Assembly: GCA_041577335.1 (NCBI GenBank)
Contig: JBFGJH010000010.1
Span: forward strand, 1-64,000
DNA: 64,000 bases
Direction of reading: 5' to 3'
Source: Acidimicrobiia bacterium
Lineage (GTDB): Bacteria > Actinomycetota > Acidimicrobiia > Spongiisociales > JAENVV01
This document shows positions 19,209-62,272 of the stretch, one piece after another. A program made the position numbers and the translations under genes. The notes under the pieces are model-generated. The model saw only the letters and a list, made by a program, of their open reading frames with translations, did not search any database and had not been told where the DNA came from. Position 1 is the stretch's first letter. Each line of letters begins with the position of its first letter.

Positions 19209-19558
19209 TGCCGCGCCCCACCAAAGGCAAAAGGTTGGGCGGCAGCCCGAGCCACCAGAAAGCCATGCTGGCCAACTTGTCGGCATCGCTTTTCTGGGAC
19301 GAGAAGATCACGACCACCGTCACCAGGGCCAAGGCCATGCGTCCGTACGCTGAGAAGCTGATCACCAAGGCGAAATCCGGGTCACTCCACGACCGTCGCC
19401 AGGTGCTCGCCCACATCACCGACAACGACGTGGTCACCAAGCTCTTCGACGACATCGGTCCACGATATGCCGATCGGAACGGCGGATACACACGGGTCGT
19501 GAAGATCGGCCCGCGTCGCGGCGACAACGCCGAGATGGCGGTCATCGAGTTGGTCTAG
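19208..19558 (+). CDS. rplQ: 50S ribosomal protein L17
   Basis: ITTT..RAK, R.GGYTR..K.GPR.GD.A.MA.IEL. Confidence 0.98.
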
Positions 19559-19710
19559 CCGAGCGAGGCAGGCCTTGCTCGGATTCCTTTCGGGTCCGAC
19601 CCTTCGGCCGCGCTCGTCCTGTCGCTGCGGCGTACACACCGCCGCACCTTCGAGCTTCCCCCCTCGAGCTCTCGTGGGTCGTGGAGGTTGGTCCGAGCCG
19701 CCGATTCCAC
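19559..19710 (+). repeat. Multi-hairpin intergenic element, copy A
   Basis: CCGAGCGAGG-CAGG-CCTTGCTCGG directly after rplQ TAG, then ATTC, a degenerate P2 (CC-CTTC-GGCCGCGCTC) and P3 TGCGGCG-TACACAC-CGCCGCA-CCTTC; same architecture as 38674 and 52474. Confidence 0.65.
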
Positions 19711-37655: not shown

Positions 37656-38673
37656 ACCAACGGTTCTGGCGTTCGAAACGAGCTGCGATGAGACCGCGGT
37701 GGCGGTGGTGCGCGGCACGACCGCCCTCTCGAACGTATTGTCCAGCCAAGTCGGAATCCATGCGCGATTTGGGGGGATTGTGCCCGAGGTTGCAGCTCGT
37801 GCCCACGTCGAGTCCATACGCTCTATGACGCACCGAGCGCTGGCTGAGGCAGGTGTTCATCCCGATGACCTCGACGGGGTCGCGGCAACTCAGGGCCCCG
37901 GCCTCATCGGGGCGTTGCTGGTCGGCTTCTCCTTCGCCAAGGCAACCGCCTGGGCGCGGCAGCTCCCCTTCATCGGAGTCGACCACATGGAGGGACATCT
38001 GTTCGCTCCCCGGCTCACCGCGCCCGACTTCACGCCCCCCGCAGTGGTGCTGCTGGCATCCGGTGGCCACAGCCAGATCGTTCATGTGCGCGATTGGGGC
38101 CAATACGAGGTCCTCGGCCAAACCATCGACGACGCCGCCGGTGAAGCGTTCGACAAGTTGTCCCGATTCATGGGCATGGGCTATCCAGGCGGCCCGGCAA
38201 TCGATCTCGCCTCTGATGGTGGAGATCCAGCCGCCGTCCAGTTCCCGCGTGCTCTCCCCGGGGATCGATACAACGTTTCCTTCAGCGGGCTGAAGACCTC
38301 CGTGACCACGTTTCTCGAGAAGGGCAAGAAGGCCGGTCATCTTCCCTCTCGTGCCGACGTTGCCGCGTCCCTTCAAGAGGCCATCGTCGATGTGCTCGTT
38401 GACAAGACATTCAACGCCGTCGAGGACACCGGTGTTCAAGTCGTCGGCGCCGGGGGAGGGGTCCTCGCCAATCGGCGTCTTCGGACGCGCCTTCAGGAAG
38501 AGGCCGACCGACGGGGGATAGCCCTGTTCGTGCCTCCGCCGGAGCTCTGTACCGACAACGGCGCAATGATCGGCGCCGCCGGCGCCCACTGGCTTGCCGA
38601 AGGTCACTACACCGCCTGGGATGCCGGAGCGGACGCGGGGATGTCGCTCGGGTCAGGCTCCGAGCGAGGCTGA
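37648..38673 (+). CDS. tsaD: tRNA N6-threonylcarbamoyltransferase
   Basis: [49 protein letters not shown]. Confidence 0.98.
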
Positions 38674-38804
38674 TCGACCCGGGCACGCCCAGGGTCGAAA
38701 TTCTGGACGAGCGGCCCTTCGGCCGCACTCATGGTCGTCACGGCGTACACGCTGCCGTGACTCCGGGACGAGCGGCCGGCTCAGCCTCCCCCTCGAGCTC
38801 CCCC
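38674..38804 (+). repeat. Multi-hairpin intergenic element, copy B
   Basis: Hairpin TCGACCC..GGGTCGA right after tsaD TGA; AATTCT; GAGCGGCC-CTTC-GGCCGCACTC; TCGTCACGGCG-TACACGC-TGCCGTGACTCC; CCGGCTCAGCC..CTCCCCC. Confidence 0.75.
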
Positions 38805-39017
38805 AAGAGGGCTTGAGCTTGTACTTGAGTCGTCTGTCGTGGTTCGTGGCGCTTGGTGGAGAACGCAATGGGCTCTCCATTACGGTTCCGGGGTAATGGA
38901 CGGGTTGGCAGCGAAGCGGCAACGGCCGAGCGTCCGGCCGGCGTCTGTTTGGACCGTGTGAGGTCTCGGTCATGCCCCTACTGCGTTGCTCGAAGTCTGG
39001 CGCCATTATCCTGCCGT

Positions 39018-51681: not shown

Positions 51682-52473
51682 ATGATGGGAGCCCCTGAGC
51701 CTCTGCGCGAACCGCCGCCCCTGCCGGGTGCCGACCAACCGATGGTGTGGCGCCTCTGGCACTTCGCCGTGGCGTTTCTGGGCGGGTTGCTCACCGCCAA
51801 CGTGGCGTTTGGGTTGCTTGCAACCACGACGGCAGACGGTTTGATCGACCTCGATTCGGTGACTGCCAACCAGCTGTTTGGGATCGTGATTCCAGCTCAG
51901 CATGCCGGGACCCTCGCCGTCGTTGCGATGATCGTATTGGCCAAGCGGGAGTCCTTTGCGTCCGCTCTTGGCTTCGATCTCGACATCAGGCACATTTGGT
52001 GGGTAGGGGTCGGGGCAGGTGTCGCGATCGTGGTGAGTTTGCTGACGATCCCACTCGCTTCTTGGCTCGATGTCCAGGACAACCCGCAGCGTGTGGTCGA
52101 ACAATTTGGTGACGTTGCATCCGGCCTGCCGCTACTGGCTGCCGTGCTGAGCCTCGTGGTTCTCACGCCGATCACCGAGGAGATCCTCTATCGCGGCGTC
52201 CTCCAACGAGCAGTCGGCCGTTGGCTGGCAGCCGTTCCCATGGTTGCGGTGACGAGCATCATTTGGGGCCTCGCCCATCTCCTGGATCCAGCGGATACCG
52301 ACACGGTGTGGTGGTCGCAAGCCTTGATCACATTTGTTCCCATAACCATCTTCGGCGTGATCGCCGCAACGGCCACCGTCCTGGCGAAGGGTCGGCTCGG
52401 AAGAGCGGTGTTTCTCCACGGCGGTTGGAACCTCCTCGGCGTGATCGCCCTGATCGGGGCCCAAATGGCATAG
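51682..52473 (+). CDS. CPBP-family (CAAX/Abi) intramembrane metalloprotease
   Basis: PITEEILYRG, WGLAH, LH..WN motifs; multiple TM segments. Confidence 0.88.
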   Translation: MMGAPEPLREPPPLPGADQPMVWRLWHFAVAFLGGLLTANVAFGLLATTTADGLIDLDSVTANQLFGIVIPAQHAGTLAVVAMIVLAKRESFASALGFDLDIRHIWWVGVGAGVAIVVSLLTIPLASWLDVQDNPQRVVEQFGDVASGLPLLAAVLSLVVLTPITEEILYRGVLQRAVGRWLAAVPMVAVTSIIWGLAHLLDPADTDTVWWSQALITFVPITIFGVIAATATVLAKGRLGRAVFLHGGWNLLGVIALIGAQMA

Positions 52474-52610
52474 CCGACCCGAGCAGGCTCGGGTCGGATT
52501 TCTGTTCGAGCGGCTCTCCAGCCGCACTCTTCTTGGTCGGTGCCGGGCGCAGGTCCCGGCACCTCCATGTAAGGGGACGGCGGAGCCTTTTCCCCTTACC
52601 AACCCCCTAC
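52474..52610 (+). repeat. Multi-hairpin intergenic element, copy C
   Basis: P1 52474-52497 (CAGG loop), P2 52508-52529, P3 52537-52566 (CGCAGGT loop), P4 52569-52599 (CGGCGGAGCC loop). Confidence 0.8.
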
Positions 52611-52637
52611 GGCGGTGTTCAGGCGAGCGCGCTCGGA

Positions 52638-52804
52638 TGGGGAGTTTGAGGGACGGCTCCGCCGGCCCCTCAATGTGGGAGGTACGGCGACCTGCGCGCC
52701 GTACCGACAGGGTGAGTGCCGCCGCAGGGCGGCTCCTCCAGGCGCTCGGTCGAATCCTGATTCGACCGAAACCGAATCCGATCGAATCCTGATTCGATCG
52801 GCTG
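52638..52804 (-). repeat. Multi-hairpin intergenic element, copy D (inverted, with duplicated P1)
   Basis: Reverse complement has P1 twice (52778-52801, 52746-52769), P2 52714-52735, P3 52678-52707, P4 52646-52673, with P1, P3 and P4 loops identical to copy C. Confidence 0.8.
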
Positions 52805-52856
52805 CGGCAGCATGTCTGGTACCCTCGCGGCCCTCAGGAGCGGAGGAAGACTCAGG

Positions 52857-54014
52857 GTGGAAATCGATATCGGTATTGGTAAATCGGCTCGTCGAGCGTT
52901 TGGCTTTGACGACATTGCGATCGTTCCCAGCAGACGGACACGCGACCCAGATGACGTGGACATCAGCTGGCAGCTGGACGGTTTTCGATTCGAGTTGCCA
53001 ATGCTCGGTTCGGCCATGGACTCGGCTATCTCTCCGAGCACGGCGATCGAGATCAGCCGGCTTGGCGGGCTGGGCGTCCTCAACCTCGAGGGCCTCTGGT
53101 CCCGCTATGAGGATCCCGATCAGTTCCTCATCGAGATCGCCGAGCTTTCCGCCGAAAAGGCGACGCGCCGGATGCAGGAGATCTACCTCGAGCCAATCGA
53201 CCCGGACCTGATGACGCAACGGGTCCGTGAGATGAAGAAGGCCGGCATCGTCGCAGCTGGGAGCCTTACACCTCAGCACGTCGAGCGCTTTGGGTCGTCC
53301 GTTCGCGACGCGGGCCTCGACATCCTGGTGATCCAGGGAACGGTCGTATCCGCCGAACACGTATCGACCAGGACGGAGCCACTCGACCTCCGAGACTTCA
53401 TCGGTGGGTTCGAGTTGCCCGTGATCGTTGGCGGCTGCGCCTCGTATTCCACGGCTCTGCATCTCATGCGCACGGGAGCCGTCGGTGTTCTCGTCGGTGT
53501 CGGCCCCGGCGCGGCCTGCACCACTCGAGGTGTCCTCGGCGTGGGGGTCCCGCAAGCGACGGCGATTGCCGATGCTGCGGGAGCGCGAATCAGGCACCTC
53601 GACGAGACTGGGCGGTACGTCCACGTAATCGCCGACGGCGGAATGCGAACCGGCGGCGATGTCTCGAAAGCAATTGCGTGTGGTGCCGATGCCGTGATGA
53701 TCGGGTCGCCGTTGGCCTCCGCCACGGAGGCTCCCGGCCGGGGCTCACACTGGGGCATGGCGACGTTTCATCCAACGCTCCCCCGAGGAGCGCGGGTTCA
53801 GACAGGTGATCTGGGAACACTCCAAGAGATCCTCGTTGGCCCCGCCCACGAGAACGATGGCCGCCGAAACCTGTTTGGCGGTCTCCGAGCGTCAATGGCC
53901 ACGACGGGATACGCAGACCTGAAGGAATTTCAAAAGGCCGAGGTCATGATCGCCCCGTCGCTGCAGACGGAAGGCAAGTCGCTCCAGCGCAGCCAGCGCG
54001 TCGGTATGGGATGA
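52857..54014 (+). CDS. guaB3: GuaB3-family IMP dehydrogenase-related protein
   Basis: [41 protein letters not shown]; no CBS pair. Confidence 0.9.
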
Positions 54015-59842: not shown

Positions 59843-62086
59843 GTGTCCACGTTGTTCTCGGACCTGGCCGACCCAGCTGAGTCTGACCTGTTTGAAGATC
59901 TGAATCCCACCCAACGAGAAGCCGTCGCTGCCACCGAGGGCCCGGTGCTCGTCGTGGCCGGGGCGGGCTCCGGCAAGACGCGCGTGCTGACCTACCGGAT
60001 CGCCCACCTCGTTCGCGATCTGGGCATATCCCCGACATCGATTCTGGCGATCACCTTCACCAACAAGGCAGCAGATGAAATGAAGGAACGAGTTGGCTCG
60101 TTGGTCGGGGGAGCCATCCGAGCGATGTGGGTGTCGACCTTTCATAGCGCTTGCGTGCGCATCCTCCGTCGCGAAGCGCACCGCTTCGGCTACCGCTCGT
60201 CGTTCAGTATCTACGATGCCGCCGACTCGCTTCGGCTGATCACACAATGTGTCAAAGACCTCGACCTCGATCCCAAGCGCTTTCCGCCGCGCAACATTCG
60301 TGCCACGATTTCAAACGCCAAGAACGAGCTCATCGACTACGAGACGTTCCTTGGCCGCGACTCTGGCTTCTTCCACGAACAGGTCGCCGATGTGTACCGG
60401 CTCTACCAGCAGCGGTTGCTGGAGGCGTCGGCGATGGACTTCGACGACCTGCTCAAGGTCACGGTTGAGCTATTCGGGGCATTTCCCGACGCGCTCGAGC
60501 AATACCAGCAGCAGTTCCGGTACGTGATGGTGGACGAGTATCAGGACACCAACCACGCGCAGTACAAGCTCATCCAGCAACTCTCCAGCATTCATCGCAA
60601 CCTGTGCGTCGTCGGCGACGGCGACCAGTCTGTGTATGCCTTCCGCGGCGCCGATATCCGCAATATCAACGAGTTCGAGAAGGACTACCCCGACGCCAAG
60701 GTCATCGTTCTCGATCAGAACTATCGATCGACATCGACCGTGCTCGAAGCAGCCAACGGCGTCATCGTCAACAACCGCGCCAGGAAAGACAAACGGCTGT
60801 GGACCGACCGCGACCAGGGCGACCCGATCCGGGTCTACAACGCCCAGGATGAGCATGATGAGGCCGGGTTCGTCGCTGAGCGGATCGGGGAACTCGAAGC
60901 CGCCGGTCGCTCCCTGTCCGACATCGCGGTCTTCTATCGCACGAACGCACAGTCGCGGGTGATCGAAGACATGCTCGGCCGTCACCAGGTTCCGTACAAC
61001 GTTGTCGGGGGCCTGAAGTTCTACGAGCGTCGCGAGATCAAGGATGCGCTGGCCTACCTTCGCGTCCTGGTGAATCCCGACGACCAGGTCGCCCTCAAAC
61101 GCATCATCAATGTGCCGCGGCGCGCCATTGGAGACACCACGGTCGGTCACATCGACCGATTTGCCGAGTACCACAGCATCACGTTTCACGAGGCACTGCG
61201 GCGCGTCGACGAGATTGGGCCGTTGAATTCGCGCGCCAAGGGCAAGGTCAAGGAGTTCATGGTGCTCTATGACCTGCTGATCGAACGAGCTGAGCAGGGG
61301 GGCCCACAAAGTGCCCTGGAAGGTGTGCTGAGCGACACTGGCTATCTCAGCGAGATCGAAGCCGAAAAGACCATCGAAGCGCTTGGGCGTTATGAAAACC
61401 TGCGGGAGCTCCAGACGGGTGTCGATGAGTACGTGGCCGGCATGGAAGGGTCGCTGGTGGAAGGCGTCGAGTGGGCCGACTTGTCCGGAATGGAGCAGCT
61501 CGTCCAGTACATTGCCACGATTTCGCTGGTGGCGGACATCGACGAGTTCGACAAGAGCGCCGATGCGGTCACGATCATGACGCTCCATAACGCCAAAGGC
61601 CTCGAGTTCCCGGTTGTGTTCATCGTCGGCATGGAGGAGGGAGTGTTCCCGCACCAGCGCAGCTTGGGAAGCCCTGAGGAGCTCGAGGAAGAGCGGCGTC
61701 TCTGCTACGTCGGGATCACTCGGGCGATGGACAGCCTCTACCTGTCACACGCCGATTCCCGGATGATGTTTGGCATGTCCAACTCCAACTTCGCTTCACG
61801 ATTCCTTGCAGAGCTTCCCGACGGAACCGCCGAACCGGTCCAGCGGGAGCGAAAACCCGATCGGGAACGAGCAACAGGGCCACGAACGAGCGTCACCGGG
61901 AGCGACATCTCGATTGGTGATCTCGTTCGCCATGACATGTTCGGCACGGGGACGGTTGTCGAGATGGCAGGTGACGACGCGGCCGCCGAGGCCCAAATCT
62001 CCTTCCCGGGCCATGGCCTCAAACGTCTGCTGCTTGCCTGGGCGCCCCTCGTGAAGGTCGGCCCGGACGGGTCCGGGCCGAGTTAG
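59843..62086 (+). CDS. pcrA: ATP-dependent DNA helicase PcrA/UvrD
   Basis: LNPTQ.EAV, AGAGSGKT, DEYQDTN, VGDGDQS.Y.FRGA, TLHNAKGLEF, EERRL.YVGITRA; GGAGGA RBS before GTG 59843. Confidence 0.96.
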   Translation: MSTLFSDLADPAESDLFEDLNPTQREAVAATEGPVLVVAGAGSGKTRVLTYRIAHLVRDLGISPTSILAITFTNKAADEMKERVGSLVGGAIRAMWVSTFHSACVRILRREAHRFGYRSSFSIYDAADSLRLITQCVKDLDLDPKRFPPRNIRATISNAKNELIDYETFLGRDSGFFHEQVADVYRLYQQRLLEASAMDFDDLLKVTVELFGAFPDALEQYQQQFRYVMVDEYQDTNHAQYKLIQQLSSIHRNLCVVGDGDQSVYAFRGADIRNINEFEKDYPDAKVIVLDQNYRSTSTVLEAANGVIVNNRARKDKRLWTDRDQGDPIRVYNAQDEHDEAGFVAERIGELEAAGRSLSDIAVFYRTNAQSRVIEDMLGRHQVPYNVVGGLKFYERREIKDALAYLRVLVNPDDQVALKRIINVPRRAIGDTTVGHIDRFAEYHSITFHEALRRVDEIGPLNSRAKGKVKEFMVLYDLLIERAEQGGPQSALEGVLSDTGYLSEIEAEKTIEALGRYENLRELQTGVDEYVAGMEGSLVEGVEWADLSGMEQLVQYIATISLVADIDEFDKSADAVTIMTLHNAKGLEFPVVFIVGMEEGVFPHQRSLGSPEELEEERRLCYVGITRAMDSLYLSHADSRMMFGMSNSNFASRFLAELPDGTAEPVQRERKPDRERATGPRTSVTGSDISIGDLVRHDMFGTGTVVEMAGDDAAAEAQISFPGHGLKRLLLAWAPLVKVGPDGSGPS

Positions 62087-62113
62087 TCGTGCCGCCCTTC
62101 GTGCGGCCAGAAG

Positions 62114-62272
62114 TCGCACAATGTGCGAATCCTTTGCAGTTTGGGCAGCAAACTACGATCCCCGTCGGCTGGGCGTACACGCCGCTCACCTCAGGTTTGA
62201 CGGCCTCAACTCAGGCAGCGCCCAAGGCAGGTCTCCGGTCCAGGGTCGGCGACAAGCGGAGCCTCCGGTCCC
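62114..62272 (+). repeat. Multi-hairpin intergenic element, divergent copy E
   Basis: P3-like TCGG-C-TGGGCG-TACACGC-CGCTCA-CCTC (62165-62192) and later GCGGAGCC (62256-62263) within a stem. Confidence 0.5.

Follow-up and report, generated by a model that had tools for sequence, protein, structure and literature searches.

The described systems closest to the element reported here are the REP, BIME and REPIN repeats of Enterobacteria and Pseudomonas. In the accounts given in PMC3337134, PMC3116915 and PMC12306157, these are dispersed extragenic palindromes at gene ends, present in tens of copies, mosaic or modular in make-up, with inverted doublets and long vertical persistence, and their structure is kept while the sequence drifts; some lie <=15 nt from stop codons, and REPs at such distances cause ribosome stalling according to Liang et al. 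2015, whose work PMC12306157 summarises. The four-hairpin element of Acidimicrobiia is like them in these features of position, copy number, make-up and persistence. As those accounts describe it, a REP/BIME is one palindrome of 20-40 nt, whereas the Acidimicrobiia element consists of four different hairpins (~135 nt). It differs from REP/BIME also in being strictly oriented and abutting the stop codon, and, unlike the REPIN-RAYT system, it was accompanied by no RAYT gene in the 41 genomes searched. REP elements have a constant GTAG head, and the Acidimicrobiia element is without one.

An actinobacterial family with similar properties is TRIT ("Tuberculosis Rho-independent terminator") of Mycobacterium, which in the descriptions of PMC3152330 and PMC13714241 shares with the present element a conserved sequence and structure and a narrow distribution at stop codons, the latter being given in PMC3152330. 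Its function is presented there as unsettled, a shaping of 3' ends by RNase III having been proposed, and both TRIT and the Correia elements of Neisseria appear in the account of PMC13714241 as proposed RNase III substrates. The same descriptions give TRIT as one palindrome that is largely bidirectional, has its centre near -8 and is reported from Mycobacterium alone. The present element, in contrast, is an asymmetric unit of four hairpins found in Acidimicrobiia, and its start lies 0-3 nt behind the stop; TRIT is set apart here by its description and not by its sequence. Correia elements, as characterised in PMC13714241, and other MITEs are likewise non-autonomous insertions that are present or absent between close relatives and form long hairpins, and Correia elements are co-transcribed with neighbouring genes. 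Neither the terminal inverted repeats of MITEs nor their target-site duplications were seen in the Acidimicrobiia element. The palindrome-associated elements of the IS200/IS605 type go with TnpA (Y1) and/or TnpB in the genome and insert 3' of a fixed tetra- or pentanucleotide, a combination not found here. In Actinomycetota, MIRU of the mycobacteria is likewise found at gene junctions and leaves the flanking genes intact, but it is described as carrying an in-frame bridging mini-ORF at stop/start overlaps. Unlike in MIRU, the upstream frame ends before the Acidimicrobiia element, and the distance to the next gene ranges from 14 to >700 nt. The element forms a new family within the familiar REP/BIME/TRIT type of gene-end repeats in bacteria and is not a new kind of system; the features worth following are its tight, oriented association with stop codons and the absence of the usual transposases. 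Acidimicrobiia are abundant and mostly uncultured, and no paper on their non-coding genome was found.

The locus under study is the gap between a CAAX protease gene and an IMPDH-family gene (named "guaB3" in an earlier note on this DNA) in the genome G000, from which the window, i.e. the whole stretch of 64,000 nucleotides analysed, was taken. The gap measures about 330-338 nt and holds two inverted copies, C and D, of the four-hairpin element (Table 1). The earlier note had placed the two copies there tail to tail, C forward and D reverse, and these positions were confirmed, each copy scoring >130 bits with the covariance model R1 described below. The TAG stop of the CAAX protease gene abuts copy C, and the first three bases of the R1 match (52471 on) are this stop. 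The minimum free energy structure of copy C consisted of the four predicted hairpins (-72.8 kcal/mol, z -5.0 against shuffles), with the antisense strand folding nearly equally well (z -4.3), and copy D folded at -70.2 kcal/mol with a z of -3.9. When the stems of C and D were compared, P1 (CCGACCCGAG vs CCGATCGAAT) differed at four positions, P2 (GCGGCT vs GCCGCC) at two and P3 (GGTGCCGGG vs GGTACGGCG) at three, and the partners still paired in every case, just as the earlier note had reported, except that D has two hairpins of the P1 type and the note had used the outer of them, an extra duplicate, while it is the inner that forms part of the element proper. The same note had called the loops identical; this did not hold for P2 (CTCCAG vs CTGCGG), and CAGG is indeed the HP1 loop of the family.

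Table 1. Copies A to E of the four-hairpin element and features of the CAAX protease-IMPDH gap, in positions of the window.
Feature	Position	Strand	Basis
Copy A	19556..19664	+	R1 75.1 bits, E 4.1e-17
Copy B, full length, preceded by TGA	38671..38806	+	R1 112.4 bits, E 3.9e-27
Upstream gene, Rce1-like CAAX protease family protein	51682..52473	+	Pfam PF02517, E 2.4e-15; ORF list
Copy C, four-hairpin element	52471..52608	+	R1 134.4 bits, E 4.9e-33
Copy C, HP1 (loop CAGG)	52474-52497	+	
Copy C, HP2	52510-52525	+	
Copy C, HP3	52534-52567	+	
Copy C, HP4	52569-52599	+	
Copy C, C-rich tail	after HP4, up to 52608	+	
Central spacer between tails of C and D, with short GC palindrome	52609..52635	.	sequence, inverted-repeat list
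Copy D, tail to tail with C	52636..52772	-	R1 131.6 bits, E 2.7e-32
Copy D, inner P1-type hairpin, element proper	52747-52768	-	
Extra duplicated HP1-type hairpin (stem-loop 52779-52800), head of D	52773..52813	-	direct repeat family D1
Downstream gene, IMPDH-family protein	52812..54014	+	Pfam PF00478, E 1.3e-47
Copy E, degenerate, rearranged	62055..62166	+	R1 36.5 bits, E 1.0e-6

The extra HP1 of copy D is a strain-variable indel, as a contig of run X7 from a slightly divergent strain skips 52771-52813. A run X7 contig of a ~96% identical strain was also seen to diverge from the window inside HP1, from 52487, and to have, beyond this point, another 3' arm of HP1 and another linker, which could be explained either by the exchange of a hairpin variant at the same site or by a chimeric contig caused by the repeat. 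An RNA reading through both copies was predicted to form one long imperfect hairpin in which only the HP1s fold locally (-206.5 kcal/mol, z -8.5), and such a hairpin is, according to this folding model, a plausible substrate for double-strand RNases. Since most of C is predicted to pair with most of D, a kissing of the C and D loops, as suggested in the earlier note, is argued against as the main interaction. The count of five copies in 64 kb made there was reproduced insofar as the window holds five R1 matches, but copy A is incomplete and the copy near 62114 is degenerate (36.5 bits). The TAG stop of the ORF before it forms the first bases of copy A, whose HP4 is partly deleted, with the 5' half missing.

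The G000 assembly (3.38 Mb in 128 contigs, 63% GC) was searched using nhmmer with four window copies as the seed, and 32 copies were obtained at E <1e-8. The covariance model R1, built from 24 copies and comprising 138 positions and 35 pairs, gave 69 matches in the same assembly at E <=0.01, and 34 of them were full-length at E <1e-11. The unit of ~135 nt is non-coding, dispersed and modular and is made of four hairpins followed by a C-rich tail. HP1 consists of RTTTCG, a variable stem, a CAGG loop and then CGAGTT, and is duplicated in some copies; the loop of HP2 is usually C(UUCG)G, with CTTCGG found in 15/24 copies of G000 and in 42/79 copies overall; HP3 has a few alternative loop types; and HP4 has a G-run stem with a GGC-GGA-GCC tip. 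An optional extra hairpin or other modules are present in some copies. The CTTCGG of HP2, which is the UUCG tetraloop motif, was counted as a hint of RNA. The ACCTCC motif was equated in the earlier note with the anti-Shine-Dalgarno sequence, and this reading was abandoned, the motif not being kept in copies from other genera. A GTTTCCTCCTCCAGCGA-like motif follows the tail of several G000 copies (C3:2711, C32:33280, C18:16052, C9:70312) and occurs six times in the genome, which suggests a further optional module. With Rfam 15, the whole window gave no match at the gathering threshold, and lowering the bar to E 10 added nothing useful (highest score below the threshold in 52400-52900: 18.8 bits, E 0.42); together with a literature search in which no description of the element in Acidimicrobiia or Actinobacteria was found, this bears out its designation as undescribed.

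The context of the copies was assessed using a crude, GC3-filtered ORF set of G000 (3506 ORFs, with the stops TGA 2215, TAG 1065 and TAA 226) and the best 40 of the 69 matches, the partial match C85:1906-1983 being left out. Among these, the 5' end of the element faced the stop of a co-oriented upstream gene in 32 of the 38 copies having an upstream neighbour (p 1.2e-5). The start lay within -4 to +3 nt of the upstream stop in 22 copies and between +4 and +86 in none; where both neighbours were known, 18 of 26 copies were abutting, against 2.3 expected with uniform placement in the free spacer. The 22 abutted stops were 16 TAG, 4 TGA and 2 TAA, an enrichment of TAG over the 30% background (p 5e-5). 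Three upstream frames extended 27-36 nt into the element. In G142, a genome of another genus, abutting was observed at 9/20 loci, with 6 TGA and 3 TAG, and it was found at 3/3 loci of G001, a congener of G000, and at 2/6 loci of the genus g14. Both the fixed orientation and the exact abutment to stop codons were overlooked in the earlier note. The stop itself is not a fixed part of the element, since the distance from the stop to HP1 varies from 0 to 6 nt; copies away from genes or inside arrays are without TAG. Two other ideas about the stop were considered and rejected. An element carrying its own stop codon was discarded, as the consensus 5' end contains no stop in any frame and there is no TAG in arrays or away from genes, and a displaced original stop at the 3' end was discarded as well, a TGA following the tail in two cases but not in general.

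The genes that carry adjacent copies are unrelated to each other. Within the range of distances to the next gene given above, several copies are located only 14-38 nt before the next start, in apparent operons, and therefore the element cannot be an efficient terminator. The location at gene ends, the sense orientation and the make-up of stable, GC-rich hairpins with a C-rich and G-poor tail behind them would all suit a family of terminators, factor-independent or Rho-assisting, acting in place of U-tract terminators, and TRIT was first proposed as such a terminator in the description of PMC3152330. In addition to the copies inside apparent operons, however, no U-tract was found after any hairpin, the tandem arrays of up to four copies would be unexpected, and TRIT itself overlaps little with termination sites according to a later study as cited in PMC13714241. 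We regard a terminator family as very unlikely.

The congener G001 has 4 copies of the element versus 34 in G000. Its orthologous CAAX-IMPDH spacer (L043) is ~50-60 nt long and without the doublet, and the leader of the IMPDH-family gene, ~60 nt, is conserved there despite the absent doublet. Three more G000 copies (C4:18955, C4:11296 and C50:12618) are missing at the syntenic sites of G001. The four-hairpin element is an insertion, which orthologous sites may have or lack. One site is filled in both genomes (C18:16052 in G000, L040 in G001), and there the stems of HP1 and HP3 are entirely different, which points to replacement or conversion. Where G000 has TAG, the stops of G001 are TGA at three of the four empty sites and TAG at the remaining one, which are too few sites to distinguish a TAG that served as target from one gained on insertion. 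None of the run X7 DNA contigs joins across an empty site. The empty sites, the 4 vs 34 copies and the tandem arrays and inverted doublets of G142 fit best with the REP/REPIN-like, non-autonomous option among those offered in the earlier note.

Two side observations were made in the comparison of these genomes. At an empty G001 site (L053), a plain GC-rich hairpin stands directly behind the TGA of the orthologue of a G000 gene of 319 aa, at the place where G000 has the four-hairpin element, and the element may replace simpler stop-proximal hairpins. In G000, a 6.3-kb segment with an ORF of 1580 aa (C50:6510-12800; L047) is absent at the syntenic locus of G001, where the flanking genes are 72 nt apart, and the three minus-strand genes in and beside this segment each have their stop abutted by a four-hairpin copy.

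A dedicated cis-regulatory RNA, a small RNA gene or a self-cleaving ribozyme, fixed and not mobile, could account for the loops and the HP4 tip being conserved from one family of the order to another despite the changes in the stems. Yet orthologous sites are empty, the genes next to the copies have no relation to each other, there are arrays as well as truncated copies and no Rfam match appeared even at E 10, and we consider a fixed RNA extremely unlikely. The ribozyme option of the earlier note fares no better in particular, with no Rfam match and with the conservation of the junctions between genera being only moderate.

In a folding of 24 aligned copies by RNAalifold, HP1-HP3 were predicted, with changes on both sides in 21/24 pairs. 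The pairing was examined further with 79 copies from four genera, using column shuffles (500) and slid partners as controls. Paired cells amounted to 95.2%, against 72.2% in the shuffles and 34-53% with slid partners; all 35 pairs changed on both sides, and 0/500 shuffles reached the observed values, although the significance is overstated by the shuffle control, since the alignments were fitted to the structure of R1 and the copies are related. Much of the "covariation" consists of whole hairpin variants swapped between copies and not of stepwise compensatory mutation. G-U and A-C mismatches were equally common (44 vs 34, p 0.31), favouring neither strand, so that the folded strand, and RNA as opposed to DNA, cannot be read from the sequences; the folding could equally be needed in single-stranded DNA.

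Constraint in place was assessed in the genus g14, whose six genomes contain 40 loci, 32 of them belonging to eight orthologous sets. A tally of pair-by-set cells, made with L209 left out, gave 171 invariant cells and 65 in which both sides vary and are paired, against 19 one-sided breaks, 15 cells partly unpaired and 4 with G-U. Orthologous elements had a median identity of 0.89, compared with 0.90 and 0.885 for the 300-nt flanks (47 pairs; L207 and L209 were left out, as two further G057 loci fell in one cluster). A non-coding insert as conserved as its mostly coding flanks indicates constraint or concerted evolution. The statement of the earlier note that stems are kept by compensatory change while the sequence drifts agrees with all three analyses, i.e. 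RNAalifold, the 79-copy pairing and the orthologous sets of g14. The family as observed is oriented, stop-abutting and structured, it is gained and lost, and its hairpins are kept both between copies and at orthologous sites.

A search for a mobilising enzyme, proposed in the earlier note as an associated HUH/RAYT/TnpB gene, gave no candidate of this kind. The Y1_Tnp domain (PF01797, RAYT/HUH) was found in 0/41 genomes, including the carriers G000, G001, G028 and G039, and the TnpB domain (PF07282) in 2/41, neither of them among the four carriers and one being the unpublished G036. The IS110 transposase (DEDD, PF01548) was present in 8/16 carriers vs 70/151 genomes overall (including the unpublished G025 and G036) and showed no association; it was not reported in G000 or G142. 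As the genomes are 78-98% complete, none of these absences is conclusive. By eye, no terminal inverted repeats were seen, the 5' end (RTTTCG and hairpin) being unrelated to the 3' end (C-rich tail), and no target duplication was seen at the junctions inspected, including 3 doublets. The motif at the insertion junction is not fixed.

These ends could be those of a purely selfish element moving as single-stranded DNA, of the IS200/IS605 PATE or REPIN type, in which the hairpins would be transposase sites, the position at stops would result from a short target motif combined with purifying selection, and the host would gain no role from it. The lack of terminal inverted repeats and of target duplications at the 3 doublets inspected by eye, the asymmetric ends with subterminal hairpins, the fixed orientation relative to a TAG-containing junction and the strand symmetry of the wobble pairs are all consistent with such an element, as are the different copy numbers of congeners and the recurrence of inverted doublets in G142. 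Against it stand the absence of Y1 transposase from the 41 genomes and of TnpB from the carriers, the copies held at orthologous sites in up to 6 genomes of a genus and conserved like the flanking genes, and a target that differs between genomes (both TGA and TAG in G142, mostly TAG in G000). On balance a purely selfish element appears unlikely.

The reading which we favour, and which is probably correct, is a REP/BIME/TRIT-like, trans-mobilised gene-end repeat that is transcribed as a structured 3'-UTR RNA. The element would be non-autonomous and would be moved or copied in trans by a host or mobile enzyme recognising the folded hairpins, and it would land, or survive, only directly behind stop codons, mostly TAG in the genus of the window. 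It would then share the transcript of the upstream gene, opening its 3' UTR or the intercistronic spacer. On the analogy of REP/BIME, TRIT and Correia elements, the hairpin block would serve as a barrier to 3' exonucleases and as a substrate for double-strand RNases shaping the 3' end, and HP1 would also modulate the termination of the upstream gene because it lies within the footprint of the terminating ribosome. A more specific proposal, which we hold to be quite unlikely, is that a candidate enzyme other than Y1, TnpB or IS110 homes the element, by a novel mechanism, to 0-3 nt of stops with a lineage-specific target (TAG in this genus, TGA and TAG elsewhere), and that the host keeps the module as a 3'-UTR device recognised by a protein or an RNase, with loops conserved across the order.

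The distribution of the repeat was determined with R1, which detected the element in 16/151 genomes of the order, 10/69 genera and 7/12 families. In the genus g14 all six genomes (6/6) are carriers, and among the other genomes of the window's own family 1/18 is. G142 has 53 R1 matches, some of them lined up head to tail in arrays that reach four copies and others paired tail to tail in ten or more doublets of two subfamilies, whereas G000 has one clear doublet only (C/D). At the G142 loci L054-L063 the internal copies of arrays are truncated inside the HP4 loop. The alpha/beta tail-to-tail doublets of G142 recur with a conserved central spacer of ~60 nt, and such a doublet may constitute an independent unit.

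Named public genomes were scanned with a pattern, which gave at least 80 loci, and R1 was applied to the matches listed. Among these 80 listed loci 35 matched R1, and the other 45, from Streptomyces and others, did not. The 35 matching loci listed comprised 31 in MAGs titled Acidimicrobiia, Acidimicrobiales, Acidimicrobiaceae, Ilumatobacteraceae or Microthrixaceae, 1 titled "Actinomycetota" and 3 in one MAG titled Magnetococcales. Apart from the three matches with the Magnetococcales title, the element is confined to Acidimicrobiia, with a patchy distribution. The three (L087, L109 and L152, with R1 E values of 4e-6 to 2e-10) are separate contigs of that MAG and represent either mis-binned Acidimicrobiia DNA or the presence of the family outside the class.

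The family provides an unusually clean natural data set for studying the site choice of gene-end repeats and the reasons why they keep their structure, with four independent hairpins, dozens of copies, both empty and filled orthologous sites and orthologous copies in sister species. If the targeting of stop codons is mechanistic, it points to an unrecognised route of mobilisation and gives a handle on the formation of 3' ends in high-GC bacteria without U-tract terminators. The repeats also matter in practice: they break assemblies, as judged from the many copies at contig ends, and they can be mistaken for gene-specific regulatory RNAs.

G000 was also seen to contain another repeat, of ~70 nt and unrelated to the first, consisting of a hairpin with a C6/G6 stem (TAGTCCCCCC...GGGGGGAAGG). 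It gave 15 BLAST rows in this genome including the query, and its sites, all outside the window, include C4:18850-18930, C4:100649-100716, C4:104282-104349, C76:844-912, C62:19934-20003 and C67:8906-8968 besides others. This repeat often adjoins a four-hairpin copy, and it is present in G001 too.
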